Assembly: GCA_965248925.1 (NCBI GenBank)
Contig: CBDFLE010000006.1
Span: forward strand, 800,001 to 864,000
Source of the DNA: Candidatus Multivoradales bacterium
GTDB lineage: Bacteria > Acidobacteriota > Thermoanaerobaculia > Multivoradales > J023
Direction of reading: 5' to 3'
Length of the DNA stretch: 64,000 nucleotides
Made by a program: the position numbers and the translations under genes. A model generated the notes under the pieces. The model was given only the letters and a program-made list of their open reading frames with translations, was not told the origin of the DNA and ran no database searches. Positions 27,787 to 49,479 of this stretch are shown here, piece after piece (positions within the stretch are counted from its first letter, which is position 1; the number at the start of each line of letters is the position of its first letter).

Positions 27787-29595
27787 ATGACCCGCGACGA
27801 CCTGCGCAACCTGGCGATCATCGCCCACGTCGACCACGGCAAAACCACCCTGGTGGACGGCCTGCTGTGGCAGAGCGGTATTTTCCGCGACAATCAAGCG
27901 GTCGCCGAGCGGGTGATGGACTCGATCGATCTGGAGCGCGAGCGGGGCATCACCATCATGTCCAAGAACACCGCGATTAATTTTCGCGGTACCAAGATCA
28001 ACATCGTCGACACCCCCGGCCACGCCGATTTCGGCGGTGAAGTCGAGCGCATCTTGAAAATGGTCGACGGCGTGTTGCTGCTGGTGGATTCGAGCGAAGG
28101 ACCGATGCCGCAAACCCGCTTCGTGCTCAAGAAAGCCCTCGAAGCCGGCCTGCCGCCGATCTTGGTGATCAACAAGATCGACCGCCACGACGCCCGCATC
28201 CAAGGGGTGATGAACGAAGTCTACGACCTCTTCATCGAACTCGACGCGCCGGAAGAGCTGCTCGATTTCCCCGTGCTCTACACTAACGCCAAAGACGGCA
28301 TCTGCCGCCGCCAGCCAGACGGCGAAGACGAAACCCTGGTGCCCCTCTTCGAAGCCATCCTGGAGCACATCCCAGCACCGAGCTACGAGCCCGAGGCGCC
28401 TCTGCAACTGCAGGTCACCACCCTCGACTACGACGAGTACCTCGGCCGCCTGGCCATCGGCCGAGTCTACAACGGCAATGCGAAGCGCGGCCAGGCAATA
28501 GTGCGAGTCAGCGCCGAAGGTGAGCCCAAGCCGGCCAAGATCGCTGGTCTGCTGGGCTACGAAGGGCTTGCCCGCAAGCCGATCGAAGAGGTCGGGCCGG
28601 GCGACATCGTCGCCGTCGTCGGCCTCGACGAGGTGTCGATCGGCGACACCCTCTGCGAGCCCGACTTCCCCTTGCCGATGCCGCCGATCGTCGTCGATGA
28701 GCCCACTTTGGCGATGACCTTCAGCATCAACGACTCGCCCTTCGCCGGCCTCGACGGCAAGCATGTGACCTCCCGCAAGTTGCGCGAACGGCTGCACAAA
28801 GAAGCGCTCACCAACGTCTCCATCCGGATCACTAACACCGAAGCCGCCGACGCCTTCCAGGTCGCGGGTCGTGGCGAGCTCCAACTCGCCATCTTGATCG
28901 AGATGATGCGTCGTGAAGACTTCGAGTTGACCGTCGGCAAGCCCGAGGTGCTGACCCGCGAGATCGACGGCAAAAAGCACGAGCCGATGGAAATGCTGGT
29001 AATCGACACTCCCGAAGAGCACATCGGCGTGCTGACCCAGAAGCTCGGACCACGCAAAGGCAAGATGCTGAAAATGGCCAGCTATGGCTCGGGCCGAGTG
29101 CGGCTCGAATTCCGGGTACCATCGCGGGGCCTGATCGGCTTCCGCACCGAGTTCCTCACCGACACCCGCGGCACCGGCATCATGAACCACCGCTTCGACG
29201 GCTGGGAGCCCTGGCAGGGAGACATCCCCCACCGCTCCACCGGCTCGCTGGTCGCTGACCGCGCTGGCAAGACCACCTCCTACGCGATCGAAAACCTCCA
29301 GCCCCGCGGCACCCTGCTGGTCGGTCCCACCACCGAAGTCTACGAAGGCATGATCGTCGGCGAGCACTCCCGTTCCAACGACCTCGATGTCAACATCACC
29401 AAAGAAAAGCGGCTGAGCAACATGCGCTCCTCCACTTCCGACATCTACGAACGCCTGGTCCCCCACCGCCGCTTAAGCCTCGAACAGGCCCTGGAGATGA
29501 TCCGCCAAGACGAAGCGGTCGAGGTGACGCCGAAGAGCTTCCGCCTGCGCAAGAAGCTGCTGCGAGCGGTGGATCGCAAGCGCAAGAATCGCTAG
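27787..29595 (+). CDS. typA: Translational GTPase TypA/BipA
   Basis: [41 protein letters not shown] and EVTPKS motifs. Confidence 0.98.
28963..29594 (+). repeat. 632-bp direct repeat, copy 1 (typA 3' end)
   Basis: Matches 48787-49418 by eye; overlapping ORF translations in both copies are identical. Confidence 0.95.
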
Positions 29596-29692
29596 GGGGT
29601 GGAAAGGGCATCGGAGGGCTGGGCTGAGCAGAGGGGCGTGGTGCTAGTGCTTGGGCTTGCAAATCCCCGAATCTGACCGACCCAAATCAGTG

Positions 29693-32467
29693 TCACTCAT
29701 CACTGATCTCGACCATGCCTTCGATTCCGAGGTCTGCCAGTGCCTGATGTAGATCGGCGCACAAGCTCTTGACCACCGCCCCATCAACCGTGACGCGCAA
29801 GTCAATCCCAACCTTCAGATCGGCACCAGACCGCAACTTGGGAAGCAGTTTCGTGCCAAGCCGATTCCACAACTCAGCCGGAACCTCCCCGTGGATGCGA
29901 AGTGCTCGCTTGCTGGCACTTGGCTCCAGGTCCGGGTCAGGCCTTGGTTCCGGCGCGGGCTCTTGGCCCGGTACGGATTCTGGATCCGGTGCGGGCTCTG
30001 GATCCGTACCGAACTCTGGTGGGGCAACCAGGATCTTTGCCCTGTCTTTCAAGAGCAGGAACACATCGGATTCGAAGGTGACCTCGTCCGGTCCGACCGG
30101 CCCGCGGAACCACACGCGCTCGTAGGTGCCATCCGTCTTCTGGCCGGAGGCCAGGCCAAATTCCCCTTTGCCGACGAGCTCGACGACCTTCGACTTCAGC
30201 ACGGCGTCGGGATCGACCAGTCGGGTCAACGCACCATTGAGGAAACTCTGCCGCAGACTCACCAACGGCCAGGCACCTGATTCCTTCAATGCTGGCGGCC
30301 AGTTGCGCTCGAGGTAGCCGGCACCCACCGACTCGTTGAGTACCGCTCTAGACTTGAGCGCAGTGATAATACGCCCGCAGAGGCTCTCACCGCCGCTGGC
30401 GTGCCCGGCGCCGAGGTCGATGACCGCCAGCCCATCGACTTCGCTGTTATCGGCAAACACTACGTAGCGATAGTCGCCCCAGACCTCGTCGCGCGCAGTT
30501 TCTTCGGCATCGGCTACCCTAGTCTTGATCTCGGCACACTCGGCAGGCGCGAATTCGCCACCGAGCGTGCCCTCAGCAATCTCAGTGGCAACCCGCCGCC
30601 ACGCGAGCCAGAATTCCACCTTTGCTCGTAGATCACGGCCCGGCTTCTTGATCACCCATACAATGGCACCAGGATAGAGGCGGGGCGACTTGCCGCGATG
30701 CTTCGTCCATTCAGCCAGATCTTCTCGCACCCGGCCGCTCCCCGACCAGTTGCTGTTGGGGTCAACCACCACCAGCGTAAGCCTCGGCGAGTCCTGAATC
30801 GCAGCCCCATCAGCAGGAAAGTACTGCCGTGGAATACTCGCGCCTTTGTCGAACTCCTTCTGAATCAACGACCTCATGGCCGGCTGAATCTCTGACTGCT
30901 CATCCAACGAAGCCCGGCGGTCGCTAACCACTTTCTTCAAGGTCGGCTGATGGCTGATCTTGAACCCGTCCGAGCCAACTCGGCGAATGAAGTAGGCCCG
31001 ATCCTCGAGGGCCAAAGTAGCGGTGTCTACCGATGTCGTGTCCACATCGGGTTCACCTAGCGCAAAACGCAGCTCCGGCAGGTGGGCCACCTTGTCTACT
31101 TGTCCACCCGAAGACTCGAATAGAACTGCCATCCCCACACGCCGGTGAATATCGAGTAGGGGGGCCTTGGTATCCGCATCCAGCGCGCGGGCGTGCGATT
31201 GTGCTCCCGCAATATCGGTTTCGATAGCTGCCATGAGGCGTGGCTCGCCGAGTTGGCCGAGAACAACGCTCCGGAGCTCAGGCTGGTCGAGGGGTGCCGA
31301 GCCGAGTGTGATCAGGGGCTCGCGGCGCGCCTTGGCGAAGGCATCCTTCTGCGCCCAGGAGATCCACTGGGCCAGCATGGCGAGGGTGCCTCTGGTCTGC
31401 TGAAACTGAGGCAATGCCTGCCATTTGCGTTGAAAGACCGAGAGTGTCGCTGGGTGGAACGGGTAGCAAGACTCGAAGCGGGCGCGCAGGTGCTCGCGCG
31501 CTTTGGCTTCCGTAGCAGTGCTGTCCACCGCCGTCCACTCAGGCGGCAGCCGCGCCCGGCGTTCGAAGCACCAGTCGGCGTAGATCTTGGAAACCTTCTT
31601 GCGCTGGCGTTCGGGTCCAATATCGTCAAACAGGCGCCGACGCACGACTTCGCCGATCTCGGCTTCGTCGTTGGCGATCAGATCCTTGGCCACTCGCCTC
31701 ACGACCTTGGTGATCTTCTCCTGCCACTCGAGATCGAATTCGGTCATCTCGACCTGGCTGCGCGGCAGGCTGATCACCACCGCCCCCCGCGTGGTGGCGG
31801 TCATTGCCACGGTCAGGTTCTGGATGAATGCGTAGAAGGAGTCGGCGAGCTTGCGATGACGGTTGACGAAGTTCAATACCTCGTCAAAGAGCACCAGGAC
31901 CGGCGCGTTCGCAGCGGTAAAAATTCGCCCCAAGGCCTCTGTGCCGGGGGGCGTCGTCTTTGCTTCCGTGCCGAGTTCAGCTACGCCTCGATCGCCAGCG
32001 ATCTGACCGGCAAGATCGATCCAGGGCGTCTCGCGCCCTTCTCGAGGATCCCAGGCGTTGCCAACAAATGCCGCGACCTTCGCTTGCGGCGCTTGCGAGA
32101 GACCGGCACCTTGCAGCAGGTCAGCGACCCCGTCCAGACCGTTCACGTCATGGCCGGAAGTGACCAGATGATAGAGGGCTGTCAAGGTGTGCGTCTTGCC
32201 GCCGCCAAACTGAGTCACCAGCATCATCACCGGCGACGTGTTCGCCGTTTTCCCGGCCAATCGGCGCAGCACCATCCCAGAATGTTCACGCAGAGCCCGG
32301 GTAAAGCAGGTGCGGGCGAAGAATTGGGTCGGGTCGCGATAGTCTTCCGGCGCCGTCCCGCCCACCACCTGTTCCAGATGGATGGCGAACTCGTCGGGAT
32401 TGAAGGAGCGTCCTTCGCGCACCTCCTGGCGCGGTGTGGCGACTTTGTACCAGGGTTCGAGAGCCAT
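29693..32467 (-). CDS. DUF499 AAA+ ATPase (BrxC-related)
   Basis: EFAIHL, TQFGGGKTH Walker A, LFDE Walker B, YPFHP, FQQTRGTL. Confidence 0.9.
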   Translation of the reverse strand: MALEPWYKVATPRQEVREGRSFNPDEFAIHLEQVVGGTAPEDYRDPTQFFARTCFTRALREHSGMVLRRLAGKTANTSPVMMLVTQFGGGKTHTLTALYHLVTSGHDVNGLDGVADLLQGAGLSQAPQAKVAAFVGNAWDPREGRETPWIDLAGQIAGDRGVAELGTEAKTTPPGTEALGRIFTAANAPVLVLFDEVLNFVNRHRKLADSFYAFIQNLTVAMTATTRGAVVISLPRSQVEMTEFDLEWQEKITKVVRRVAKDLIANDEAEIGEVVRRRLFDDIGPERQRKKVSKIYADWCFERRARLPPEWTAVDSTATEAKAREHLRARFESCYPFHPATLSVFQRKWQALPQFQQTRGTLAMLAQWISWAQKDAFAKARREPLITLGSAPLDQPELRSVVLGQLGEPRLMAAIETDIAGAQSHARALDADTKAPLLDIHRRVGMAVLFESSGGQVDKVAHLPELRFALGEPDVDTTSVDTATLALEDRAYFIRRVGSDGFKISHQPTLKKVVSDRRASLDEQSEIQPAMRSLIQKEFDKGASIPRQYFPADGAAIQDSPRLTLVVVDPNSNWSGSGRVREDLAEWTKHRGKSPRLYPGAIVWVIKKPGRDLRAKVEFWLAWRRVATEIAEGTLGGEFAPAECAEIKTRVADAEETARDEVWGDYRYVVFADNSEVDGLAVIDLGAGHASGGESLCGRIITALKSRAVLNESVGAGYLERNWPPALKESGAWPLVSLRQSFLNGALTRLVDPDAVLKSKVVELVGKGEFGLASGQKTDGTYERVWFRGPVGPDEVTFESDVFLLLKDRAKILVAPPEFGTDPEPAPDPESVPGQEPAPEPRPDPDLEPSASKRALRIHGEVPAELWNRLGTKLLPKLRSGADLKVGIDLRVTVDGAVVKSLCADLHQALADLGIEGMVEISDE

Positions 32468-32471
32468 AGGG

Positions 32472-33437
32472 TTACTCCATGGGCCAGCGCAGTTTGTCGA
32501 AGAGCGCCAAAGATGACTTCTTTAGTCGGGCGAGATTCGCATAGGCGATCGGTGCGAAGCTTTGCTTGCAATCGAATGCACGGTAACGGAATCCGTCGGT
32601 TACCACCACGTCTCGGGGAGTACCTAGTTTAGCTACATACGCTTCCGCTTGCTGACGTGCACCTTCGAGCCCGGTACCGAGGCGCTTGGCCTCGATCACG
32701 AAGCAGCAGCTCTCCGGCCTGCGTGGCAGCGCTTCGAAAAGTGCCACGTCGATACGGCGCCATTCGATGGCGATGTTCTCTGGTGGCCAGCCGAGTGCTC
32801 GCAAGAACGGCACGGTGAAGTGGGCTACCATCTCATTCTCGTTGGGGGCGGCACCCATGCGCTCCTCGTCACCATACAGTCCGGCCAAGTCCCGCGCCAA
32901 GCCCACCACGTTGCGCAGATTCGCCGGCACCTCGTCCAACGGCGCTTCCACCGCCGGCAGAACGGGCAGTGGCGCCTCTTGCCAGCGAGTGAGGCCAGAA
33001 GCGAGGAAGCTATGAGCATAATCCAGCACCTCGGCACTCTGCACTCGCGAGCAGCGCATCGGGCTAGCACCCAAGACGGAGCCTTCAAAGCGGTACGTTT
33101 CCGGCAACGGGCACCAGCGCACTCTCCTACCGTGCCGTAGATCCCAACCGTTGACGTCATCGAACGGCTTCAGGTACTCGTACCCACCGGCTACCAGGCC
33201 GACCGCGGCAATGGTGTCAACGGCGGTACGGAGGAGCAGAAGATCGTCGACCTCGAGGTCTTGCGCAAAGCGGCGCAAGAAACCGTACTTCTTGCCGTGA
33301 CCATGTTCTGGTCGCCAGGGGCCATCCCCACCCGGGCCGAGCAGCGCCACACCGTATTTCAGAAAGACCTCGGCATATGGGCGGCCCACCGGCCCGCCCG
33401 AGATCTGCCAGACGGCGGGAGTGCGCGCCCCCCTCAT
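32472..33437 (-). CDS. Putative restriction endonuclease: N-terminal PUA/EVE-like domain plus HsdR-N-like PD-(D/E)XK domain
   Basis: NE..V...VPFLRALGW, IDVAL, IEAK, QA..Y and VVTDG motifs in the C-terminal half. Confidence 0.65.
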   Translation of the reverse strand: MRGARTPAVWQISGGPVGRPYAEVFLKYGVALLGPGGDGPWRPEHGHGKKYGFLRRFAQDLEVDDLLLLRTAVDTIAAVGLVAGGYEYLKPFDDVNGWDLRHGRRVRWCPLPETYRFEGSVLGASPMRCSRVQSAEVLDYAHSFLASGLTRWQEAPLPVLPAVEAPLDEVPANLRNVVGLARDLAGLYGDEERMGAAPNENEMVAHFTVPFLRALGWPPENIAIEWRRIDVALFEALPRRPESCCFVIEAKRLGTGLEGARQQAEAYVAKLGTPRDVVVTDGFRYRAFDCKQSFAPIAYANLARLKKSSLALFDKLRWPME

Positions 33438-34584
33438 CGGCCTGCCCTCATCCGCGCCGCCTTCCAATCAGCAGATCTCACCCCGTCCTGCCCCATCGGC
33501 TCTGGACGAACTTGACTGCCTCGTTGATCGGGAGGGCCCGGGTGGCGTTGCCTGAGCGAAGGAAGAAGGTCGCGCTCGGACCCTCCTTAACGTACACCGC
33601 GTGATCACACGCCTCGATGGTGATCTGACAAACGTCCTGGCCGTCGATCGCGTGAAAGGTGACCGTGAGAAACGGCGCCACGGCCTCGCCCAAGTCTCTC
33701 CCCGCGAGTTGCCTCAGGTGCAGCTCGAAGCCGTCCCGGTCCTTCTTCCTCAGAGAGTCGTAGTCCGTGCCGATCCCAACGGCCTTGCCGTCGTCATCGA
33801 CACCGATGAGCAGGGTGCCGCCGTTCTTGCTGTTCAAGAACCCGGCCGCTGTCTTGATGACGACCTTCTCCAGCGCCTTGTTGACCTTGCCCTCCCTGCG
33901 GTCCCAACGCAGGCTCGACTTGAACTCGAAGGTGTCGCTCTCACCGGCAGCCATGCGCTGCCTCACTGCCGCCTCGTCGGTGGGATCGTCGGAATCGACC
34001 GGCGACCAGCTGGCGATGAAAACATTCATCGCTTCGGCGAGCTGATGGCGGCGTGCGGCCAGGAAGTCGAGGTAGTTCTCGGGATCCCAGAGCGTGCGGT
34101 CCATGGGGACGCACTGGGCGCGCAGAGCGCCAGGCTGGTTGTCCTCCACCTGCGGCAGGTACTTGTCGGGCGGGGTCGACGAGATCGACCGGTTCGCTTT
34201 TCGGGTGAGGAAGGCTCGGTTGGCCAGCTTGCCTATTCCGACGAAACTGACCAGCCATTCCGATCGAAACCGACCACTTGTCGGAGCGAAGCGACGCTGG
34301 CGCTCTCCTCAGTTGTAAGTGTCCACTTTCGCTGTAGCTGGAGCCCTCCTTCCGGCTCTTCTTCTTGATTGATTGTATTCAAATAACCCGTCGTCGGGGC
34401 TGTGCGTAGCTGTGGGAAACGCAGGTTGGGGGGCAGGGGGGCGTTTTCCAAGCGGTTGTGGGAATCGCAGAGCGATTTCCACAACCGCGGCAGCTTCCAC
34501 AGTCCATCTTGGGTCGGGTCCGGATCGGGCCGCAGGCCCGCTGATGGGTCAGGATCGGCGATCGCTTCAGCATGCTCTTGGATC

Positions 34585-35349
34585 TCACCTTGCCTCTCGC
34601 TGGGCGGCCTTGCGAATACCGCCGGCTCTCTTCGCCCGCATGGAGTCACCGTCCACCGCGAGCTTGTAGGCGCCGTGGACAATGCGATCGAGGATGGCGT
34701 CGGCCAAGGTCGGATCGCCGATGACCTCGTACCAGCTCTCAACCGGTAGCTGGGAGGTCACCAGCGTGGAGCGGTTGCCGTAGCGGTCCTCAAGAATCTC
34801 GAGCAGGTCGCGCCGCTCGCTGGCCCCGATCGGCGCCAGCCCCCAGTCGTCGAGGATGAGCAGGTCTGTGCGAGCATAGCTCTTGAGCAGCTTCTCGTAG
34901 CTACCATCACCCCGCGCGATGGCGAGCTGGCGAAACAGCCTCGGCACCCGCAGGTACAAAGCGGTGTAACCCTCCCGACATGCCTTGTGCGCGAAGGCGC
35001 AGGCGAGAAAGGTCTTGCCCACCCCGGCCTTGCCGGTGATCAGCACGTTGAGATGCTCGGCGATCCACTGGCACGAGGCCAGGCGCAGGATCTGGCCTTT
35101 GTCCAGGCCCCTCTTGGCTCGCCAGTCGATGTCTTCGATGGCCGCCTGCTCGCGCAGCTTGGCTTTTCGCAACCGCGCTATCAAGCGGCGGCTGGATCGC
35201 TCGGTCGCTTCGCGCTCGACCAGCAGCCCGAGGCGCTCTTCGAAGGAGAGCTCTGAGACATCGACCATCGACAGCTGCTCCTCAAAGGCTTTGGCCATAC
35301 CGTGGAGCTTGAGCGCGGCGAGTTGATCGAGCGTCGCGTGCCTCAGCAT
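34585..35349 (-). CDS. istB: IS21 helper ATPase IstB
   Basis: GKAGVGKT, LLILDDWG, TSQLP and DAILDR motifs. Confidence 0.95.
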   Translation of the reverse strand: MLRHATLDQLAALKLHGMAKAFEEQLSMVDVSELSFEERLGLLVEREATERSSRRLIARLRKAKLREQAAIEDIDWRAKRGLDKGQILRLASCQWIAEHLNVLITGKAGVGKTFLACAFAHKACREGYTALYLRVPRLFRQLAIARGDGSYEKLLKSYARTDLLILDDWGLAPIGASERRDLLEILEDRYGNRSTLVTSQLPVESWYEVIGDPTLADAILDRIVHGAYKLAVDGDSMRAKRAGGIRKAAQREAR

Positions 35350-39806: not shown

Positions 39807-42200
39807 TCAAATGTCCGGTTGAGCCTCTCCGGAGGTGTTCCGAGGCCCTGGGAAGGCCAGGCTCCGGGGTGGCGCCTTCTTGATCGCGAACCGCATCCGT
39901 AGCTCGGTGCCGGGGAAGTGGGTGGCGGTAGCGTTGAGTTCTTCGCAGACGGCGGCGATCGCCGCCGTCTTGTGGGGAGAGCTGAGCGGGTCGATGGAAA
40001 GGAGCAGCACGGTGTCGGTAACCTCCATATCGCCGCCGGCCGCGAAAGCGCTTTGGATCAGGGTGCGTCCCTCCTGCTCGGTGCGGCGGTAGTGGGGTGA
40101 TAGGAGCCGGAGAAGATCACCTTCGGCCTGGTAGGCGACCATCTTGAGAATATCGGTGAGGTGCTTGCGCTCGACGGACAGCTTGATGACATCCGCTTCG
40201 ACGACCTCTTGGACGGGGACGCGGACGGGGAGGGTCGCGCGCTGGTTCTCGAGTTCGGTGATCTGCTCTATCGCTGCCCGGACCCTGGCGGAGATGGCGG
40301 CGTTGGCGATCTTGAATCCGCGCATCGTGCGCCGCCGATCCTCGCGGTTTTCAAGAGCAGCGATCCCGATGTGGGCCCGGAGCTGCTCGAGATGTGCGTG
40401 AGCTTTGCGCAGCTCTGCATTGATCTTGCCGCGCTCGGGATTCGGCACATCGCGGGCAGCGTCCGCTGGCTCGGTGCCATAGTCCACCAGGGCATCGAGT
40501 GCGAATTCTTCGCGCAGGTATTTGAAGAAGTTCTCTTGCCTCCAACGATCGAACATGCGGTAGGCGACCTCGAGTGTGGAGAGGTCGCGGCGGGAGGTGA
40601 TGATGGACGTCTGGTGGCCGTTGTCGCAGAGGCGGGTGACCTGGCGCAGGTACAGCCGCTTGCGCTTCTTCCTCGGGCCATACTCGAGGTAGATACGCTG
40701 ATCGGCGAGGAGGTACTCGAGCTTCCGCCCGTGGATCGTGTCCTTGATCTGCCCGAACTTGCTCAACGGCACCGGACGAAAGGGGGCCTTTCGGTATGTG
40801 AGGATGTCGAACTTCTTGGCGATGAGCTTCGCAAACAGCTTCGGGCTCCAACCCCCACGGTCGAAGACGACGGTGACTCGCCGGTCTCCGAGTAGCTTTC
40901 GTACCTCTTCGAGAATGAGGGGAAGCATCGTCGCAAGCCCCTTGTTGGCCTCGGTGGGGACCACGAAGAGAGGCTCGCTCTCAGCATCGTTGACCCAGTA
41001 GTCGGTGGTGGCCGGCATCGCGATCCGCATCCGCGCTACGTGTGTCTTGGGAATCTCTCGGCCACCGTGGTAGGCGCGCACATGCCCGTCCACGTAGAGG
41101 AAGCCCATGGCATGGCCCCTGGTGGCGACCCGGCGCTGAGCGAGGGCGCGACCGAGATCCGCGGCCAGGCCATGCGCGGCCAGCCGAGCGAGCTTGTTGC
41201 GCAAGGTTTTCACTTCCGGCGCTCGGTCGAGCCCGAGAAGCTGACCCAAATGCCGGGGTGAGCGCTCCTTGAGCCCTTCGGGTCGCTTGACCCGCAACAG
41301 TGCCATCAGCAGCAGGGTTACCAGAGTGGTGCGCAGCCCATAGAAGGCCGGCCCGATGCTGCCGTACAGCTCCTGCGCGATGGAGAGCACGCCGCTGTCC
41401 ACCAGGGCGGGAATCGCCAGCAGAGCACCGGCGCCCGGTAGCTGGGTCGCCGCTCCGAAGATCGGCGCCGCATCATCGAGGAATCCCAGCCTCGCCAGCA
41501 GCCGATCGCTGGCGCGATCCGCTGGATCGAGGTCCAGCGAGAGGGGAACCTGATCTTGCTCGGACGCAGAAGCGGACAGTTTTGGGTCCGCAGCCGCTGG
41601 GTCACCGCCACCCTCAGCGTCGAGCGCAAGATCCGCAGTTTTCAGGGGGCCGTCGACCTGCTGCTCATCAGAGGCGGACAGTTTTGGGTCCGCACTCTCG
41701 AAGGGCATCGTCATCTGCACTACCGACCGCTCTTTCCAGCCCAGGCGCTTGGCGAGCTTGCGAACGGCCTTCTCATCGATGCCCAGCCGCCGGCCAATCT
41801 CGCGATTCGACACACCCTCGGCCTTCCAGCCGTTGACCGCGTCCAGGCGGCCCTGCGCTACCCGAGACTGACCCCGGGGAAAACCGCGCGGCCGGCCCAG
41901 AGCAGCCAGCCCACCTTCTTCGAAGCGGCGCTGATTCCGGCGCACAGTCCGCACATCACAAGCGAACGCAAGGGCCACCTCGCGTTGCTGTGCCCAGCCC
42001 AATTCAACGAGACTCACCATCGCGTGGGCCTCGCCTGTCCTGTCGCCGGCAGCGAAGTGAGCGAGCGGCATGCCGCTGACCACCACCACCCGATAGCCGC
42101 CCCTCTGCTGGAGGCGGCAGCGGTCGTTGATCACCACAACCCCATCGGGGACCCCGGCGTGGTCTGGGAACAGGACGGTGTGCTCGCTCGTCAGTGCCAT
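39807..42200 (-). CDS. 797-aa DDE transposase with two N-terminal HTHs
   Basis: APEVKTLR, YVDGH, FDRGG and RWRQENFFK motifs. Confidence 0.88.
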   Translation of the reverse strand: MALTSEHTVLFPDHAGVPDGVVVINDRCRLQQRGGYRVVVVSGMPLAHFAAGDRTGEAHAMVSLVELGWAQQREVALAFACDVRTVRRNQRRFEEGGLAALGRPRGFPRGQSRVAQGRLDAVNGWKAEGVSNREIGRRLGIDEKAVRKLAKRLGWKERSVVQMTMPFESADPKLSASDEQQVDGPLKTADLALDAEGGGDPAAADPKLSASASEQDQVPLSLDLDPADRASDRLLARLGFLDDAAPIFGAATQLPGAGALLAIPALVDSGVLSIAQELYGSIGPAFYGLRTTLVTLLLMALLRVKRPEGLKERSPRHLGQLLGLDRAPEVKTLRNKLARLAAHGLAADLGRALAQRRVATRGHAMGFLYVDGHVRAYHGGREIPKTHVARMRIAMPATTDYWVNDAESEPLFVVPTEANKGLATMLPLILEEVRKLLGDRRVTVVFDRGGWSPKLFAKLIAKKFDILTYRKAPFRPVPLSKFGQIKDTIHGRKLEYLLADQRIYLEYGPRKKRKRLYLRQVTRLCDNGHQTSIITSRRDLSTLEVAYRMFDRWRQENFFKYLREEFALDALVDYGTEPADAARDVPNPERGKINAELRKAHAHLEQLRAHIGIAALENREDRRRTMRGFKIANAAISARVRAAIEQITELENQRATLPVRVPVQEVVEADVIKLSVERKHLTDILKMVAYQAEGDLLRLLSPHYRRTEQEGRTLIQSAFAAGGDMEVTDTVLLLSIDPLSSPHKTAAIAAVCEELNATATHFPGTELRMRFAIKKAPPRSLAFPGPRNTSGEAQPDI

Positions 42201-42249
42201 GCTCGATCATGCCTCGGCACCGAAAAAAGCGGACAGTTTTGGGTCCGCA
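41572..42249. repeat. Three identical 21-bp quasi-palindromes GCGGACAGTTTTGGGTCCGCA
   Basis: Copies at 41572-41592, 41674-41694 and 42229-42249. Confidence 0.85.
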
Positions 42250-44023
42250 CCACCTCTGAGGGGCGGTCCTGTGTTTTCAGAGGGTTAGGAGGGGTAGGTC
42301 AGGAGGTCTGGAGTCAGCCCGTTCATTGGATCAAAGGGGTCGCGCAGCAGAGGATGGCCGGGCAAGATGCGCTTGAGCCATACGAAGAAGAAGTCGGAAA
42401 GGTCCGCGTAGGGAACCGCAAAGTAGTAAGGCGGATCCGTGAACCAAACCCCGGCGGACTGGTCCGGCAGCGGGTGATCCGTAGCATCGGCGAGTTGAAC
42501 TATCCCTTTTGAAGAGCGCGGTGACGCTTCGACGATTTTGGCAACGATGTCATAACCAGACTTCCAGTTGCCTGGCGCCTTGGCAATGGGAACGACCTCG
42601 GCAAAGTCCCACACCATCGGTAGGGCTTGGCGCCCAAATGTATGCTGCATTTTCTCGGCGGTCGCGTTCCAACGCGTGCAAGACATCCCACTCATGGCAA
42701 CGCGGCTCAACGCGCAGGCCAGTAGTTCCGACATTGCCTGTTCTTCAGTGTCCACCGCGAGTGCAATTATTCTTCCCAAGGTGATCAGTGCCACCTTTTG
42801 CCGTGCCGTGAAAAGGTCGCCCCAGGTATTCACTCCGTAGAGCGGCACGTTGAAGGTCCCGCTCATTAGTGGGAGTGTTTCATCCGGCACCGGGCACAAC
42901 CCCTGCTTACCACTACGTTCCCACTTTGCGAGGATCTCCGCAACACGCCCCTGCGCCTGGCACACTGCCGCGTAGTCACCTGCGGTCGGCAATCGAAAGT
43001 GCCGGCCCTTCTCGCCGGGCCTGAGCGTGACCACCGCCGATATCCTTGCCCCGCCTGTACGATTGCCTTCGGTGTCGAAGACTGCATCCGCGCCGCCGTT
43101 CTGGGCCGAGAGCTGTGCTCGCACCCGCTCCGGCGGAAGCACGCCACCACAGCAAGGGCAGCTCGCCTTGGCGCGGGTCACGGTGCCCGGCGCAACTTCC
43201 TTGTCGCTAGAGGGTTGGAAGATCTCGAATTCCACCCGCGGCGGCTGGCCCTTTGGTCGTACCGCCCTGATGCGTAGCGCCTGCCCACAAACAGCCTTCT
43301 TCTTGCATAGCCACAGCGAACGCAAGAGCGGAATCTCCGTCCCACAGTTGGGCGACTCGCACCGAACCGTCCGTGCCCAGAGATAGGCGATCGGCGTCGA
43401 ACCATCAGAGTCGGCCGGGTAGAGGGCACCCAGTTGCTTACCAGCAGCTTCGTTGATCTCGTCGCCTACTTTGCGCAGCTTCTTTGCCAGCTCTGGTCCA
43501 TGGTGTGGAATGCTCTTTAAGAGTACCTTGAGGATTAAGCAGGCTACGGGATTGAGATCGGTAGCGAAGGCCTCACAAGCAAGCCGCAATGCCTCCAGCG
43601 GGATCGATCCACCGCCGGAGAAGGGATCAACCACCAACGGTGTTTCCTCCGGGTGGGCGGCGCGGATAAGGTTGCGAGCGACCTTGAGATAGATAGGGTG
43701 AGAGGACATGTCCCAGCTGGCGAACGATCCGATGAACCAGAGTAGAGCTCTCTGAAGCTCTACGTCACCCGTGGGCGCCTGCCGCACTTCGCCCAAAACC
43801 CGCCGTGCCTGAATCTTGAACTCCTCCGGGCAGTGAGTGTCACACGGGTCGGGCAACAGTAGCGCCATTAGCACAGCCCGCGAAGACGCCAGTGGTCGCC
43901 GCGCCCACCACAGGTGCAACATCGAGGGATGTCCCTTTGGTCCCGACTTCCCCCGCGCCGCGTGCTTCGAAACCTCGGCGATCGGAAAGTCGACTTCGGC
44001 CAAGCGTTTGCACTGCTTGGGGA

Positions 44024-45169
44024 TCACTCGGCGTCTCCTTCAAGCAAGGCGGCTCGGCGCTCCTCGAGCACGGCCCGCGTCCGCTCGATCTCGGCGATCA
44101 GCTCGGTCTCATCGGGCAAGGCCGTGCGGTACTCCGCGGCCATGACTTGGTTGGGCAGACCCTCCAGTGCGTAATGTGCCACGGCGGCATCTCGTTCGGC
44201 GCACAGGATCAAGCCCACCGGCGGGTTCTCGCCCGCGTGGGTCCAGTGCTGGCGGGCGTAGTTGAGATACAGGTGCATCTGCCCCGCGTCGGCGTGGGTG
44301 AAGGCCCCAATCTTTAGGTCGATGACCACCAGGCAGCGCAGCCGCCGGTGGAAGAAGATCAGGTCCACGCGATACCAGGCAGCGCCCACCCGCAGGCGCT
44401 TTTGGCGCCCGATGAAGCAGAAATCGCTGCCGAGTTCCAGCAGGAAGGTTTCCAAATGCTGGATCAGGGCGGCTTCGAGATCGCTCTCGGAGTACTCGTC
44501 CTTGAGGTCGAGAAACTCCAAGACGAAGGGATCCTTGATCGCCTCCTGCGGAGTGACGGCTTCCTCGGGCAGAGCTTTCTGCCCCTTCCCCAGCATGGTC
44601 GCCTTGTCCTTCGACAGAGCCGTGCGCTCGTAGAACTGAGAGTCGATCTGGCGTTTCAGTTGGCGCACCGACCAGCCGCCGCGCAGGGCCTCGGTTTCGT
44701 AGAAACGGCGAGCGTTTTCGTTCTTGACCGAGAGCAGGCGCACATAGGCAGACCAGGGCAGAACAAAGCGGGATTCCTTGCCTGTGGGAGCCAATTCCGC
44801 AGACGACGTCGGCAGAATGTTCCTGGGCCGGGATTCTGCAGACGGTGTCTGCGCAATCCCGCGCCCCTCGGCCTCCGGCCAGGCCAGATAAAAGGCCTTC
44901 ATGTGCCAGAGGTTGCGGACCGAGAAACCCCGCCCATAGCGCGCCGACAAATCGGCGGAGAGACGCTCGACCAGCTGGTCCCTATAGCCGGCACGCTCTT
45001 GCCCACTCTGGTCATGCTCGACAATCCGTTGGCCGATGAGCCAGTAGGCCGTGGTCATGACCGAGTTGACCGTGTGGGCCACCGAGTTTCTGGCCTCTTG
45101 GACAACTCTTGCGAGATCAGCCAGAATCGCCTCGTAGCCATCCTGCTTCGACACGGGTTGGTTCGTCAT
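44024..45169 (-). CDS. YhcG/DUF1016 PD-(D/E)XK nuclease-family protein
   Basis: YWLIG, GRGFS..NL, LPWSAY, KDPFVLEFL, DL.FFHR.L, GQMHLY and PVGLILC motifs. Confidence 0.92.
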   Translation of the reverse strand: MTNQPVSKQDGYEAILADLARVVQEARNSVAHTVNSVMTTAYWLIGQRIVEHDQSGQERAGYRDQLVERLSADLSARYGRGFSVRNLWHMKAFYLAWPEAEGRGIAQTPSAESRPRNILPTSSAELAPTGKESRFVLPWSAYVRLLSVKNENARRFYETEALRGGWSVRQLKRQIDSQFYERTALSKDKATMLGKGQKALPEEAVTPQEAIKDPFVLEFLDLKDEYSESDLEAALIQHLETFLLELGSDFCFIGRQKRLRVGAAWYRVDLIFFHRRLRCLVVIDLKIGAFTHADAGQMHLYLNYARQHWTHAGENPPVGLILCAERDAAVAHYALEGLPNQVMAAEYRTALPDETELIAEIERTRAVLEERRAALLEGDAE

Positions 45170-48100
45170 CCTCCGTCCCCGTAAGTCGATCGATCCTCGC
45201 AGACCTCCATCGGTTGGGTCATCGCATCCACTTTCAAGTAGTAGTGCTGCACCTTGCGGACCTCATGCCAGTCGTACTGAATAGGGTCCAGAATGGGCGT
45301 CTGCAAAGTGGGCTCAGTGGCACAGCTAGTGACGACGTAGAGCCAATAACAGTCGCGACGGTCCTCGGCCACACGCTTCTCGTTGGGCGACCAGAGGATG
45401 GTACCGGTGGCTGCGGCGAGGCCTTTGACCTCGATCAGGCGGATCTCGCCGGATCGCGTGTCGAGGCTGGTGATGTCGTAGCCAAGGTTCTTGGCGCTGA
45501 CGTCCTTCACTTGGCAGCCGCGGTCTCGCTCGTGCTCAATGACGACCGACATCGCGACAGCCTCGGTCTCGAGATTGGGGCGGAGATTCTTGACCTCGCT
45601 CGACTCGCGCTCAGGATGGGGCAAGACCAGCACGCAGGTGAGCCGCTCTACCGCCTGTAACGACAGCGCGCGCTGGCGTCCGAGCTCCTGGCGGCGACGC
45701 TCGCGGCGAGAGAGCAGCTCGGCGTGGCGATTCTCTGCCTTGACCAGACGGCCTTCGGCACCTTGTTTGCCTTCCTCCACCTCGCTAGCAGCGCGGCCAA
45801 TCTCATCGTCGGTGCGCTGCAGCAGCTCGGTGAGCGAGAGCTCGACGTGCTCAGCAATGCACTCGACCTCATTGAGACGCTCCGCTCGAGTCTCCTCGAG
45901 GAAAGGCGTCAGGGCGTTCTCTTGCAGCCAGTCAACGGGATCAGCGGCGGCGGCAATGGAGGGTAGCTCGGCAGGTGCTTCGGCGGGGCTGAAGTTGCCC
46001 AGCGCACTCGGCTCGCGGAGTTCTGGTTCGCCGTTGTCGCAGAGTTCCACGGCGAACAGGTTCTCATGCACGATCCGGCCCAGTCCGTCCACCACACGGG
46101 CGCGGTAGAAGTCGATGCGCGCCGGCTCGTCGTGGGAGAGTGAATGGAAACAGGCGCCGTGGGCGAAGGGTTCCATGGCGCACGCGCGGGTGTGGCGGCG
46201 GATCGACTCGAAGAGCGGGTGGCCGGGGGTGACCCACTCCAGATGGTGCTCGTCCGCGGTCTCGCGGTCGGTGGAGCAGCGGGGGTAGTGGTTGGCGAGC
46301 TCGGGGAGCTTCCAGTCCTCCTCGCGCTCGTAGCGGCGCAGAACGCCAGGCGTGCGGGACGGCTCGAAGGTGTGAGGCAAGCTCTCGATGGGTTTGAGAT
46401 TGAGCGGCACGAACTCGGCCGCCTCGCGGATGAAGCGGGCGATGCTCTCCGGCACCAGGCGGCGCTCCTGGGCACGGGCACGGCGCTCGACCAGCATCTC
46501 CAGGTTGAGCTTCTTGGCGGCGAGGCCCTCCAGGGCGCTTTGGCAGATGGCACGGAAGCGGCTTTCGTCCACGTCTTTCAGGAGCCGATCCTCGAGGTCC
46601 TCGTCGCCGAGCTTGCCTGCGTAATAGTCGCGCAGCACGCGCTCGACGTGGGATGCGGGCAGCACCTCGCCTACGACGTTGAAGACACTGTCGTCGTCCA
46701 GTGCGTCGCGGATCTCCTGCAGCTTGTCGAGCAGGCGCCGCAGGACCCTGCCCTCGATGGTGTTGGTAGCGACGAAGTTGAAGATCAGGCAATCCTCGAG
46801 CTGGCCGTAGCGATGGATGCGCCCCATGCGCTGCTCGAGGCGGTTTGGGTTCCAGGGGATGTCGTAGTTGAAGAGGATGTTGCAGCACTGCAGGTTGATG
46901 CCCTCGCCCGCGGCCTCGGTAGCGACCAGAACCTGGATCTCCCCTTCGCGGAACTGCTGCTCGGTGAAGATGCGCGTCCCAGGCTGGTCGCGCGAGCCGG
47001 GCTTCATACCTCCGTGGATGACGCCGACGCGGAAACCCCATGATTCCAGGTTCTCGACCAGGTAATACAGAGTGTCCTTGAACTCGGTGAAGAGCAGCAG
47101 GCGCCGGTCGGGATGGTCGAAGAAACCCTCGCTCTCGAGCAAGGCTCTCAACTTAACAAGCTTGGCCTCGGCGCCGCTCTGCTCGACGCCTTCGGCCTCT
47201 TCCGCCAGCTCACGTAGCTCGGCGATCTCCTGGTGAACCTGGTCGGCGTTACCTGCCAGGGTGACGGCCTCGAGTAGGCGTTCGAGCTGCTCGCGCTCGG
47301 CATCTTCCATCTCTTCGATCTCTTCCCAATCGGGCAAGTCCGGAGCAGCGGTGCTGGCAAGGCTCTGAGCCTCCTTCAACCCCTTGTCGAGCCGTTTGGC
47401 ACGGTTCTCGAGACTGCGCCGCATGGCGCGGGTGCTGGAGGCGAGGCGGCGCTGGTAGAGGGCCATCAGAAAGCCGACGGCCCGAGCGCGTGGGTCGTCA
47501 CTCTGGGCCGCGGCGCGGGCGCTCTGACGTTTCACGAAGCGGGTAATCTCGCGGTACAGCTCGAACTCTTCGCCATCGATGGTGAAGGCCACCGTGTGCG
47601 GGATGCGCCTGGTGAAGATCTTGCGGGCTTCCCAGGTTCCGTCGTCGCCTCGCTCGGGGAAGTAGACCATCGCCTCCTTGGTGCGGCGCAGGTAGAAGGG
47701 CGCGCGCTGGCGGCTCATGGCCTCGCGAATCGAGCGCACGTCGGCGTATGCATCTCGGTCGAGGAGCTGCAAGAAGAGGGTGAAATTGACCGGATCCCCC
47801 TTGTGGGGCGTGGCGGTGAGCAGCAGGTAGTGGTCGGATGTGTCGCGCAGCAGCTCGCCCAGCTTGTAGCGCAGGCTCTTATGCGTCGCGTCGCGGGCCG
47901 ACATGCGGTGGGCCTCGTCGACGATGACGAGATCCCAGTGGACCTGGCGTAGCCCGGGCAGGACGTCGTCTCGCTTGGCGAGGTCAAGGGAAGTGATGAC
48001 CTTCTTCTGCTCGATCCACAGGTTGACACCGAACTGATCGCGCAGGTCGCTGCCCTTGAGCACCAGGAACTTTTCGTCGAATTTCTCCTTGAGCTCGCGC

Positions 48101-48600
48101 TGCCACTGGAAGGCGAGGTTGGCGGGAGCGACGATGAGGATGCGCTCGGCGAGACCGCGCAGCTGCAGCTCGCGGATGAGGAGTCCCGCCATGATGGTCT
48201 TGCCTGCGCCCGCGTCATCGGCGAGCAGAAAGCGGACCCTGGCGAGCTTCAACAGATGGTCGTAAACAGCCTCGAGTTGGTGAGGAAGAGGATCGACCCT
48301 GGAAATCGACAGACCAAAGTAGGGGTCGAATTCCCAAGCAATTCCGAGGGCAAATGCCTGTAGGCCGAGACGCAGAAGCCTACCGTCGCCATCGTAGCCA
48401 AATCCCGGCTGGTAAATGGAAAGGGAGGCGAGATCCTCCGCTGTCAGCTTGACTTTGCGAAAAAGCTCAGTCCGGGTACCAACGAGGCCAGCCATCCAGG
48501 AACCATCGGCACACTCGCGCACGGTCTCTACTCGCATCGGTTCGCTGAATAGGGCCCCTTCGAGGATCTGGGATTCCTGGAGAAAGCAAGCAATACTCAT
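45166..48600 (-). CDS. SNF2-family helicase with C-terminal DUF3883 (NOV_C) nuclease
   Basis: LADDAGAGKT, DEAH, TATPH, EGINLQ, EQRMGRIHRYGQ; GYDI...IEVKG...SPNE. Confidence 0.92.
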   Translation of the reverse strand: MSIACFLQESQILEGALFSEPMRVETVRECADGSWMAGLVGTRTELFRKVKLTAEDLASLSIYQPGFGYDGDGRLLRLGLQAFALGIAWEFDPYFGLSISRVDPLPHQLEAVYDHLLKLARVRFLLADDAGAGKTIMAGLLIRELQLRGLAERILIVAPANLAFQWQRELKEKFDEKFLVLKGSDLRDQFGVNLWIEQKKVITSLDLAKRDDVLPGLRQVHWDLVIVDEAHRMSARDATHKSLRYKLGELLRDTSDHYLLLTATPHKGDPVNFTLFLQLLDRDAYADVRSIREAMSRQRAPFYLRRTKEAMVYFPERGDDGTWEARKIFTRRIPHTVAFTIDGEEFELYREITRFVKRQSARAAAQSDDPRARAVGFLMALYQRRLASSTRAMRRSLENRAKRLDKGLKEAQSLASTAAPDLPDWEEIEEMEDAEREQLERLLEAVTLAGNADQVHQEIAELRELAEEAEGVEQSGAEAKLVKLRALLESEGFFDHPDRRLLLFTEFKDTLYYLVENLESWGFRVGVIHGGMKPGSRDQPGTRIFTEQQFREGEIQVLVATEAAGEGINLQCCNILFNYDIPWNPNRLEQRMGRIHRYGQLEDCLIFNFVATNTIEGRVLRRLLDKLQEIRDALDDDSVFNVVGEVLPASHVERVLRDYYAGKLGDEDLEDRLLKDVDESRFRAICQSALEGLAAKKLNLEMLVERRARAQERRLVPESIARFIREAAEFVPLNLKPIESLPHTFEPSRTPGVLRRYEREEDWKLPELANHYPRCSTDRETADEHHLEWVTPGHPLFESIRRHTRACAMEPFAHGACFHSLSHDEPARIDFYRARVVDGLGRIVHENLFAVELCDNGEPELREPSALGNFSPAEAPAELPSIAAAADPVDWLQENALTPFLEETRAERLNEVECIAEHVELSLTELLQRTDDEIGRAASEVEEGKQGAEGRLVKAENRHAELLSRRERRRQELGRQRALSLQAVERLTCVLVLPHPERESSEVKNLRPNLETEAVAMSVVIEHERDRGCQVKDVSAKNLGYDITSLDTRSGEIRLIEVKGLAAATGTILWSPNEKRVAEDRRDCYWLYVVTSCATEPTLQTPILDPIQYDWHEVRKVQHYYLKVDAMTQPMEVCEDRSTYGDGG

Positions 48601-48624
48601 CCAGAGTCTTCTTCTATCTTACTG

Positions 48625-48786
48625 CTATTCATGTACTCTTTCCGCGGAAGCTGAATAGGGTTCTTCGTACTCCAGCGCTGCAACAAGATCTGCGAGTCTC
48701 ATCTTACTGGAAACGCCAAGGATTCGATCTCGCGCTCCTGGGTCGGCCGTCGTCACCACCGTCTCCTCCACCACACCTCCACTGAA
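48625..48786 (-). pseudogene. Probable 3' remnant of a gene truncated at the island junction
   Basis: Frame is open from the repeat junction to a TAG 24 nt before the SNF2 ATG, with no convincing start or RBS. Confidence 0.4.
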
Positions 48787-49419
48787 ATCGACGGCAAAAA
48801 GCACGAGCCGATGGAAATGCTGGTAATCGACACTCCCGAAGAGCACATCGGCGTGCTGACCCAGAAGCTCGGACCACGCAAAGGCAAGATGCTGAAAATG
48901 GCCAGCTATGGCTCGGGCCGAGTGCGGCTCGAATTCCGGGTACCATCGCGGGGCCTGATCGGCTTCCGCACCGAGTTCCTCACCGACACCCGCGGCACCG
49001 GCATCATGAACCACCGCTTCGACGGCTGGGAGCCCTGGCAGGGAGACATCCCCCACCGCTCCACCGGCTCGCTGGTCGCTGACCGCGCTGGCAAGACCAC
49101 CTCCTACGCGATCGAAAACCTCCAGCCCCGCGGCACCCTGCTGGTCGGTCCCACCACCGAAGTCTACGAAGGCATGATCGTCGGCGAGCACTCCCGTTCC
49201 AACGACCTCGATGTCAACATCACCAAAGAAAAGCGGCTGAGCAACATGCGCTCCTCCACTTCCGACATCTACGAACGCCTGGTCCCCCACCGCCGCTTAA
49301 GCCTCGAACAGGCCCTGGAGATGATCCGCCAAGACGAAGCGGTCGAGGTGACGCCGAAGAGCTTCCGCCTGCGCAAGAAGCTGCTGCGAGCGGTGGATCG
49401 CAAGCGCAAGAATCGCTAA
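48787..49419 (+). pseudogene. typA: Duplicated typA 3' fragment (repeat copy 2)
   Basis: Same as 28963-29594 but ends in TAA instead of TAG; lacks the G domain. Confidence 0.92.
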
Positions 49420-49449
49420 GGGTGGACAGGGCAGCGCCCACAAGACGCC

Positions 49450-49479
49450 TTGCCCATCACACAACGTCTTGTGTAAGCT
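49450..49479 (+). promoter_or_regulatory. vapBC promoter with palindromic operator
   Basis: TTGCCC-18 nt-TAAGCT with ACACAA-cgtc-TTGTGT (49459-49474) in the spacer. Confidence 0.6.

Follow-up and report, generated by a model that had tools for sequence, protein, structure and literature searches.

An Hma defence island between two identical typA 3' ends in an acidobacterial genome

The insertion of restriction–modification (R-M) units with a long target duplication was reportedly described by Nobusato et al. in 2000. A different kind of insertion, the Campbell-type single crossover of non-replicating circles and suicide vectors, turns the shared segment into a pair of repeats, leaves one intact and one truncated copy of the gene, and can be reversed by RecA. 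In integration of the prophage type, as by e14 and phage 21 at icd, the 3' end of a protein gene is the target and a replacement for that end is brought in.

The portion of Furuta et al. (2010; PMC2853133) available to us describes R-M units of less than 20 kb that are flanked by target duplications of 46–423 bp, that lack other mobility genes, and whose insertions often span a stop codon; it already proposes amplification and release via the repeats, so the Campbell/amplification idea taken up below is not new. In the available portion of Johnson et al. (2023; PMC10250203), the defence systems of the P. aeruginosa cDHS accumulate between fixed core markers and show no scars of mobile elements, homologous recombination in the flanking sequences is the proposed means of transfer, and the assembly of integrase-free defence hot spots is an open question. 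For the defence system Hma, the accessible part of a preprint (10.1101/2024.01.29.577857) gives embedded genes in 62.7% of 1,485 systems.

Here, we consider a stretch of 64,000 nt, henceforth the window, at positions 800,001 to 864,000 of contig CBDFLE010000006.1 (C6) of Candidatus Multivoradales bacterium (assembly GCA_965248925.1), a host described as a soil Acidobacterium. Positions are those of the window unless preceded by C6.

The duplicated typA end and its cargo

Two 632-nt stretches, R1 and R2 (Table 1), show zero differences and lie 19,824 nt apart from start to start. The intact typA is proximal, the cargo follows, and the 5'-truncated copy, which has no typA 5' part at all, is distal, with both repeats in direct orientation. 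The repeat has two copies in the genome by blastn, being a direct duplication of more than 30 bp and unique, and a tblastn search of the genome for a diverged third typA fragment found none. Each of 40 relatives carries one full-length typA ortholog (DNA identity 67–77%), and a second typA end was found in 0/40. Because the duplication spans the stop codon, typA stays whole, with a 19-kb anti-phage packet between the copies.

Table 1. Features of the typA–Hma region and of the neighbouring DISARM-like system (window coordinates)
Feature	Position	Strand	Evidence or remark
typA/bipA, complete, 640 aa, stop TAG	27673..29595	+	Pfam GTP_EFTU 9e-54, EFG_C, BipA_C 5e-44
R1, repeat copy: typA codons 431–640 and stop bases 1–2	28963..29594	+	exact match to 48787–49418
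Tail 1: third stop base and 97-nt spacer to hmaC stop	29595..29692		first ~15 nt homologous to tail 2
hmaC (DUF499 AAA+ ATPase)	29693..32467	-	PADLOC HmaC 6.9e-96, Pfam DUF499
331-aa gene embedded in Hma, no family assigned	32472..33467	-	no Pfam or PADLOC match
DUF262 (GmrSD_N, HEC-05-like) and AlbA_2 fusion, split by IS21	33478..38507	-	GmrSD_N 6e-27, AlbA_2 5.7e-17, PADLOC HEC-05 6e-36
IS21-family element (IstA 35343–36917, IstB 34585–35583)	34230..37131	-	Pfam IstB_IS21 3.5e-76, rve, Mu-transpos_C_2
hmaB, C-terminal part	38548..39776	-	PADLOC HmaB 1.9e-23, profile positions 611–799
IS with Transposase_29 gene (39807–42200), within hmaB	39777..42315	-	Transposase_29 2.5e-76; termini placed to within a few bases
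hmaB, N-terminal part (DUF1156 methyltransferase)	42316..44027	-	PADLOC HmaB 4.7e-80, Pfam DUF1156
YhcG-type PDDEXK nuclease, between hmaA and hmaB	44024..45169	-	Pfam YhcG_C 1.9e-56, PADLOC PDC-S02 4.3e-136
hmaA (SNF2 helicase with NOV_C domain)	45166..48600	-	PADLOC HmaA 1.6e-170; Pfam SNF2-rel_dom, Helicase_C, NOV_C
186-nt stretch upstream of hmaA, ending at novel joint 48786|48787	48601..48786		unique in genome
R2, repeat copy: 5'-truncated typA 3' end, stop TAA 49417–49419	48787..49418	+	identity, Pfam, tblastn
Tail 2 and resident vapBC (VapB 49486–49704, PIN 49701–50117)	49419..50117	+	Pfam VapB_antitoxin 5.9e-16, PIN 8e-11
DrmB and DrmA, DISARM-like	58575..63805	-	PADLOC DrmB 1.2e-75, DrmA 1.4e-256

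The two edges of the repeat differ in kind. On the left there is a single mismatch at 28962/48786, beyond which two more bases agree, and this boundary is an unrelated junction with only those 2 bases in common. On the right, the sequences after the stop codons are related but diverged over about 15 nt, since 12/14 bases agree under the scored offsets, a level reached by only 68 of 2,000,000 random draws of places on C6 (P ~3.4e-5). A comparison by eye with both tails shifted gives 13/14, and there are 3 differences in ~18 positions. The tail motif follows typA in 0/19 relatives and is thus not a family-wide motif. Scans around both tails and the joint found no promoters or terminators; the joint region, when compared with the DrmD/PRT spacer, gave a 22-nt match at best (E 0.43), and no homolog in longer proteins was found for a 53-aa frame across the joint, a result of little weight.

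The repeats are 19,192 nt apart, or ~13.7 kb without the two IS elements, and a single operon, Hma, whose genes are co-oriented, takes up this space of less than 20 kb between tail 1 and the joint, leaving spacers of 97 nt and 186 nt at its two ends. By the PADLOC definition, hmaA, hmaB, and hmaC are all present. Removal of the IS and one target duplication by script restores the DUF262-AlbA_2 gene as a single 706-aa frame, and its counterpart in one of the HmaC loci (L046) is an intact ORF of 701 aa; the in-frame removal of the other IS likewise gives one hmaB frame of ~980 aa. The activity of this Hma is doubtful, since hmaB is interrupted by an IS. Homologs of the embedded 331-aa gene adjoin hmaC in three other loci (L036, L038, and L041).

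HmaC homologs were found in 14 loci of species-representative genomes from many phyla (65–73% identity), many of these loci being on short contigs. Within the family, an ortholog is present in 1/23 genomes (G010, 63% identity), where it lies on a contig other than that of typA. The cargo moves horizontally, as is evident from this scatter over phyla, from its presence in a single family genome, and from its position there away from typA. L046, the sole HmaC locus near typA, was rejected as an equivalent site, as Hma lies on the other side of the gene and neither DUF1684 nor PRT is present. The G+C content of the island (0.60–0.67, against 0.62 for the genome) fits a related donor.

Both IS elements are later insertions and not the vehicle of the island, as follows from their many copies in the genome and from the separate target duplication around the IS21 copy. 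The IS21-family element has inverted ends, a 7-bp target duplication (GCCAGCT), and 20 further full-length copies in the genome with at least 99% identity, and the Transposase_29 element has 25 further full-length copies with at least 99.7% identity. Nor do the two form the ends of a composite transposon: both lie inside island genes, and the ends of the island are typA sequence.

Six-frame searches for tyrosine and serine recombinases had no match closer than ~97 kb to the far end of the accessory stretch. PF00589 has 38 matches in the genome, of which the one at C6:969321 is nearest, and PF00239 has four, none of them near; neither family has a match between C6:531037 and C6:969321. A tRNA scan of the window found no tRNA genes. 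RecA is present in the genome, and Ku was not found (the genome is 96.9% complete). ComEC was found, which is not diagnostic, since 10/14 control genomes carry it.

The first-pass annotation had described a defence island between two identical 632-bp typA ends that match up to the stop codon and then show related, diverged tails, and the exact repeat with its two genome copies, the 12/14 block, and the identification of Hma bear it out. Its further statement that there is no recombinase gene holds for tyrosine and serine recombinases (PF00589, PF00239) but not strictly, as two IS transposase genes lie inside the island.

The site downstream of typA and the source sample

A survey of what follows typA in relatives, which the same annotation had proposed as a check, was run on 18 of them, and on this basis the gap between typA and PRT is a variable site. 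A PRT-TPR-unk471-epimerase block lies 0–8.4 kb after typA in 4/18, while here it lies 42.5 kb from typA, with the conserved PRT gene at C6:872101. The 42.5-kb gap holds Hma, the second typA end, VapBC, and a DISARM-like system, such that both of its halves carry defence systems; beyond the window end, the DISARM-like system continues with an MmeI-like methylase and an SNF2 helicase, assigned by Pfam domains and position. By Pfam, no defence genes lie next to typA in the relatives, one of which has a CHAT-TPR gene there. The collections searched hold no close relative, the best typA DNA identity being 77%. In metagenome contigs, an exact 24-nt typA-end pattern had 0 matches, and a search with the neighbouring DUF1684 protein kept 80 loci, whose best segments had 37–67% identity, too distant in every case to stand in for an empty site or a donor.

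For one metagenome-like sample, there are public contigs built with k=31 from four runs, which can neither phase a 632-nt repeat nor give the depth of the flanks. They do contain the joint 48786|48787, at island depth, in all four runs, and in 4/4 runs the repeat is a separate 632-nt contig with a depth 1.3–2.0 times that of the island (34.2/17.7/38.4/25.6 by run, against 16.3–17.6/9.4–12/19.1–22.6/15.7–19.5). No contig of the four runs skips the island or either IS. Four odd joints occur in the contigs and are low-depth or short (depth 2.1–25.7, sides of 21–43 nt).

Origin of the island

The reading towards which we lean is that a foreign allele of the typA-downstream region came to be stacked before the resident one by a homologous crossover in the typA 3' end together with an illegitimate join (or, equivalently, by a circle that entered Campbell-style). 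The space from typA to PRT-TPR-epimerase would be a recombinase-free hot spot for accessory, mainly defence, genes, and the resident allele would have run from typA through tail 2 and vapBC onward to the DISARM-like system. The incoming DNA would have come from a related lineage with the allele typA, tail 1, and Hma, and would have been added rather than swapped in by one RecA-type homologous exchange inside the typA 3' end and one illegitimate join, the latter between typA base 1291 and the DNA upstream of hmaA. An equivalent route would be a circle closed at that same join and its Campbell-type entry; such a circle is indistinguishable from a linear fragment with one homologous and one illegitimate event. 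The product would be an intact typA, then the Hma island of 19.2 kb, then a 5'-truncated typA end before the old allele; later IS hits broke hmaB and the DUF262-AlbA_2 gene. We infer the order of events, the donor, and the circular or linear form of entry. Recombination between the 632-nt repeats could, moreover, delete or amplify the island and leave typA whole.

The first-pass annotation had proposed that a typA-3'-plus-island fragment from a sister strain circularised by an illegitimate join and integrated Campbell-style. Its stacking of alleles agrees with the intact gene being first and the truncated copy distal, with a repeat that ends where the homology of the alleles ends, with the island edge beside R1 continuing as a homolog of the resident flank, and with the lack of an integrase; no circle was found, nor any empty site or donor in the collections and metagenome contigs searched. 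The scar is of the type expected when DNA is added by the recombination machinery of the host and not by a dedicated integrase. The identity of the repeats counts against a plain crossover, which with a diverged donor would be expected to make the two copies differ; for 632 nt to show no difference beside diverged tails, either the donor would have to be very close or gene conversion would have to follow.

Gene conversion is central to another explanation, which we consider unlikely, namely that the duplicated frame is a standing one in which the beheaded typA end predates Hma and is kept identical to typA, while the cargo is swapped by double crossovers. An identity of 100% over 632 nt next to diverged tails is the pattern of concerted evolution, and the tuf pair, which is 99.3% identical over 1184 nt at a distance of 16.7 kb, indicates that conversion between distant copies operates here. 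However, an earlier insertion-duplication of the same kind would still be needed, the likeness of the tails is explained no better than by allele stacking, and the second typA end is absent from all 40 relatives.

It is rather improbable that Hma entered a break without homology and that repair of the break left a copy of the same 632 nt of target sequence on each side. The R-M units in the available part of Furuta et al. (2010; PMC2853133) are a precedent for this, and the copying of the recipient's own sequence would give 100% identity without conversion. Homology-free insertion nevertheless predicts no homology between the first ~15 nt of the island and the sequence after R2, and 632 nt exceeds the cases in that part of the paper.

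A remnant of a site-specific integrative element at the typA 3' end, which would have supplied the gene with a substitute end in the manner of prophages at icd and since lost its integrase, is a very improbable source. The topology (intact gene, element, displaced 3' end) is alike, and the IS activity in this genome could delete genes, but the six-frame search found no integrase or remnant of one, and the single Hma operon with its short spacers fills the island. Moreover, the end borne by an element should differ from that of the host, yet there is not one difference in 632 nt. An att of that length would be far beyond the usual core sizes. Among the 14 Hma loci, many of them on short contigs, none has an integrase next to a typA fragment.

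Barely credible is an artefact of assembly or phasing (a chromosome with typA and tail 2 alone and Hma on a separate circle or tandem array, or two haplotypes stitched together), which the metagenome-like source and the short-word contigs that cannot phase the repeat would allow, but which sits badly with a joint at island depth in four runs, with a repeat at about twice the island's depth and an island no rarer than one copy per chromosome implies, with a 5.2-Mb contig that crosses dozens of 2.5–2.9-kb IS copies of at least 99% identity and thus suggests reads well over 632 nt, and with the expectation that a 19.8-kb circle without a replication gene should not persist at chromosome depth.

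Recurrence and comparison with known systems

The same integrase-free topology is found at a sigma-54 activator gene and at a sulfatase gene, which makes at least two further scars in this genome; this recurrence suggests that the route of allele stacking by insertion-duplication has been used repeatedly. A far more tentative idea is that the genome routinely captures accessory and defence DNA without a recombinase by insertion-duplication at gene 3' ends, such that its hot spots would be stacked alleles whose layers are RecA-reversible and amplifiable. If this were true, each layer would be a cassette bounded by a gene end that halts at the stop codon. The capture sites would include typA with Hma, the sigma-54 activator with CHAT/TPR, the sulfatase gene, and possibly tauE with Shango.

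The typA case cleanly exemplifies an event of a known kind, the process having been described since 2000, and our account of it is drawn from a single genome. It is closest to the long target duplications in the accessible part of Furuta et al. (2010; PMC2853133), with which it shares a methylase-bearing unit of less than 20 kb, no integrase, and long direct repeats that span a stop codon. The unit has genes of the modification and restriction type considered there (the HmaB methylase, the HmaA helicase with NOV_C, and the YhcG nuclease), and, the tyrosine and serine recombinases being absent and the IS internal and later, no other mobile element is responsible. It differs from the cases in that part of the paper in the repeat (632 nt, against 46–423 bp), in the cargo, which is Hma and not a classical type I–IV system, and in the homology of the insert edge to the resident flank, a sign of a homologous crossover.

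The likeness to a Campbell-type insertion lies in the direct repeats and in the one intact and one truncated gene copy; the difference is that the event here would be a natural one, the insert measures 19 kb, and the circle is hypothetical, as is its closure by an illegitimate join with 2 shared bases. As at icd with e14 and phage 21, there is an intact gene, inserted DNA, and a displaced gene end, but here an integrase is lacking, the repeat is several times longer, and two copies that would be expected to diverge are identical.

The locus resembles the known Hma systems (PADLOC, PMC8565338; preprint 10.1101/2024.01.29.577857, each in the portion available) in that its hmaA, hmaB, and hmaC are accompanied by embedded genes in the same orientation, one of them a GmrSD-like relative of HEC-05; in comparison with the systems covered there, the embedded DUF262 protein bears an AlbA_2 domain, and both this gene and hmaB are broken by IS. 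Finally, the comparison with the cDHS in the available part of Johnson et al. (2023; PMC10250203) is instructive in two respects. The hot spot here is backed by only 4/18 distant relatives. Furthermore, a double crossover in the flanks replaces DNA without leaving a trace, whereas here a trace exists: the duplicated typA end is a scar that, with its pair of homologous tails, would mark one allele added before another rather than replacing it, to give the 42.5-kb stack of Hma, VapBC, and the DISARM-like system.

Duplicated typA ends and their cargo

The duplicated typA ends around the Hma defence system are real and well formed. As the first-pass annotation had claimed, they match without a difference for 632 nt (28963-29594 and 48787-49418 of the window) and start 19,824 nt apart. 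The repeat begins exactly at typA codon 431, close to where the EFG_C and BipA_C domains begin, and ends two bases into the stop codon (TAG in copy 1, TAA in copy 2). DNA-level and protein-level searches across the 7.98-Mb genome (six contigs, no N) found no third copy. The sequences directly past the two stop codons (tails 1 and 2), described earlier as related but diverged, share 12 of 14 bases in a block at the scored offsets, or 13 of 14 by eye once both are shifted; random genome places matched tail 1 equally well in 68 of 2,000,000 draws, and the motif is found downstream of typA in 0 of 19 relatives. The rarity of such a match and its absence from relatives indicate, at the level of sequence, that tails 1 and 2 are homologous rather than instances of a conserved signal.

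Depth was read from k=31 contigs of four public runs (one sample, one study), in which the repeat copies are not phaseable to their tails. In all four, a contig at island depth crosses the joint (48786|48787) from the island interior to 30 nt inside copy 2, and the repeat forms its own 632-nt contig, without variant letters, at 1.3-2.0 times island depth. Coverage, proposed earlier as a check, is thus consistent with the repeat occurring twice for each copy of the island. Since the 5.2-Mb contig passes dozens of near-identical IS copies of 2.5-2.9 kb, long reads presumably underlie the assembly.

The defence island announced by the first-pass annotation was confirmed by PADLOC matches to hmaA, hmaB, and hmaC and by a PDC-S02 nuclease between the repeats, where every gene lies on the minus strand. 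The IS21 copy is flanked by a 7-bp target duplication, and its scripted removal unites the DUF262 and AlbA_2 ORFs in one 706-aa frame. This gene (window 33478-38507) joins a GmrS-like, HEC-05-like DUF262 domain to a Schlafen AlbA_2 domain; the DUF1524 nuclease domain, the usual partner, was not detected in it, and an intact 701-aa ortholog exists in a Vicinamibacterales MAG (L046:1431-3536). In-frame removal of the Transposase_29 element restores an hmaB of ~980 aa, matching the PADLOC profile length. These hits and restored frames show that the island is an Hma system with embedded genes, and that hmaB and the DUF262-AlbA_2 gene were lately broken through IS insertion; from the broken frames, both are predicted to be inactivated here. 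Both IS families are in a recent genome-wide expansion. According to a 2024 preprint (10.1101/2024.01.29.577857), 62.7% of Hma systems carry embedded genes, as this island does.

Features of the typA region and of similar loci (window positions unless prefixed; C6, contig CBDFLE010000006.1, of which the window covers 800001-864000; L, other extracted loci)
Feature	Position	Strand	Remarks
typA, complete, 640 aa	27673-29595		copy 1 is its 3' end
hmaC	29693-32467	-	PADLOC 6.9e-96
331-aa gene	32472-33467	-	no hit
AlbA_2 ORF	33478-34149	-	Pfam
IS21-family element	34230-37131		20 other full-length genome copies at at least 99% identity
DUF262/HEC-05-like ORF	37080-38507	-	Pfam, PADLOC
hmaB, two pieces	42285-44027 and 38548-39810	-	PADLOC 4.7e-80 and 1.9e-23
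Transposase_29 element	~39777-42315		25 other full-length genome copies at at least 99.7% identity
YhcG-type nuclease	44024-45169	-	PDC-S02 4.3e-136
hmaA	45166-48600	-	PADLOC 1.6e-170
vapBC	49486-50117
DISARM-like system	58575-63805 + L147:1305-8869		directly against conserved PRT gene
Sigma-54 locus	C6:1254922-1289878 (L149, L150)		repeat 1074 nt, 4 mismatches, 99.6% identical
Sulfatase locus	C6:1695037-1713088 (L151)		repeat 1389 nt, 5 mismatches, ends at stop codon
tauE/Shango locus	C6:3375703-3387498 (L154)		second tauE 64% identical overall

The gap between typA and the PRT block

A divergent DUF1684 gene upstream of typA is kept in 8 of 19 relative loci. Downstream, up to 12 kb was surveyed in 18 of 40 relatives, hand-picked from the listed typA places (two on contigs ending early), and the neighbours differ among them. 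A PRT-TPR-unknown-epimerase block lies 0 to 8.4 kb past typA in four of the 18 (G004, G009, G010, and G016), whereas here it begins at C6:872101, 42.5 kb past the typA stop; the gap is therefore a variable site, here with two defence-bearing layers that each open on a typA end followed by one of the two related tails. The survey, suggested by the first-pass annotation, gave variable neighbours, a block shared by four relatives, no defence genes beside typA by Pfam, and a CHAT-TPR gene there in one relative. This gap is occupied by the Hma island, followed by the second typA end and vapBC, together with several genes without assignment and a DISARM-like system (DrmB and DrmA, plus a methylase of MmeI-like type and a helicase of SNF2 type assigned by Pfam and position).

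A small minus-strand gene of 275 nt, with an acidic stretch and antitoxin-like by eye, occurs in two copies 82% identical, one after vapC (window 50162-50436) and one within the DISARM-like operon (C6:863858-864132), with none elsewhere in the genome. An 86-nt stretch of the PRT-side spacer (C6:871969-872054) recurs, 82.6% identical, 16.6 kb leftward at window 55285-55369 (and 55459-55578), possibly as a flank of the hot spot that was duplicated earlier on that side. In the Vicinamibacterales MAG (region L046:10001-17187), an Hma system with the same embedded DUF262-AlbA_2 gene is separated by 2.6 kb from a downstream typA 59% identical to the one here; this proximity is probably coincidental, since orientation and neighbours differ. 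Elsewhere in the window, 12064-18877 looks like a mevalonate-type isoprenoid cluster (HMG-CoA reductase, GHMP kinase, an amino-acid-kinase-family gene, FMN-dependent dehydrogenase, and squalene/phytoene synthase), and at 21591-26598 a pair of neighbouring genes (841 aa and 815 aa), with no Pfam or PADLOC hit, are 85% alike over their final 101 nt.

Proposed routes of entry

One repeat boundary is the point where the likeness of the two typA-downstream alleles ends; at the other, an arbitrary point within typA, unrelated DNA is attached via 2 shared bases. Such boundaries are what would be left if DNA carrying a typA 3' end, tail 1, and Hma underwent one homologous recombination and one illegitimate closing, which is the more likely reading here. 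Either a circle would have entered Campbell-style, or a linear piece would have had its far end joined to typA base 1291. The boundaries are as expected of the Campbell-style entry first proposed, but the linear route fits the sequence equally well. For the repeats to be perfect while their tails differ, either the donor's typA must have been almost the same or gene conversion must have followed; conversion is plausible because two tuf genes 16.7 kb apart are 99.3% alike. RecA was found in the genome (96.9% complete), and a search of it did not find Ku.

A homology-free "long target duplication" would account for the perfect identity of the repeats but leaves the homologous tail unaccounted for, and is unlikely. 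The claim that recombinase genes are lacking holds for integrases: the six-frame search of the whole genome gave 38 tyrosine-recombinase and 4 serine-recombinase matches, none between C6:531037 and C6:969321, though the two IS inside the island do carry transposases. There is no tRNA gene in the 64,000-nt window. A decayed integrative element that has lost its integrase is very improbable, given the missing integrase, the identical gene ends, and an island taken up in full by the Hma operon.

Similar loci and known systems

Self-comparison of the genome gave 63 low-copy intra-contig repeats, and eight pairs were looked at. In one, a sigma-54 activator (response regulator) gene is followed by a 32.4-kb cargo with CHAT-TPR genes, IS, and a kinase, and then by a copy of its residues 133-473, without the receiver domain. 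In another, a sulfatase gene is followed by 14.4 kb (MacB/FtsX, NUDIX, B12 radical SAM, MatE, and two rve IS) and a 5'-truncated copy (residues 263-738). No integrase occurs in either cargo. A Shango system (SngA, SngB, and SngC) sits between tauE and a more diverged second copy, whose last 382 nt, ending 1 nt beyond the stop, are 97.4% identical. A vapBC-like pair repeats its 5' part, unlike the 3'-end cases. The tuf, Tn3 transposase, and FG-GAP paralog pairs are ordinary.

Johnson et al. 2023 (PMC10250203) describe core defence hot spots and pose the question of how they are built. The typA/Hma structure is a further case of a known type of event, with no new mechanism. Furuta et al. 2010 (PMC2853133) report restriction-modification units without other mobility genes, flanked by target duplications that often lie across a start or stop codon, and propose amplification and release via the repeats. 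The structure here likewise lacks an integrase and spans a stop codon; its repeat is 632 nt, against 46-423 bp in those units.
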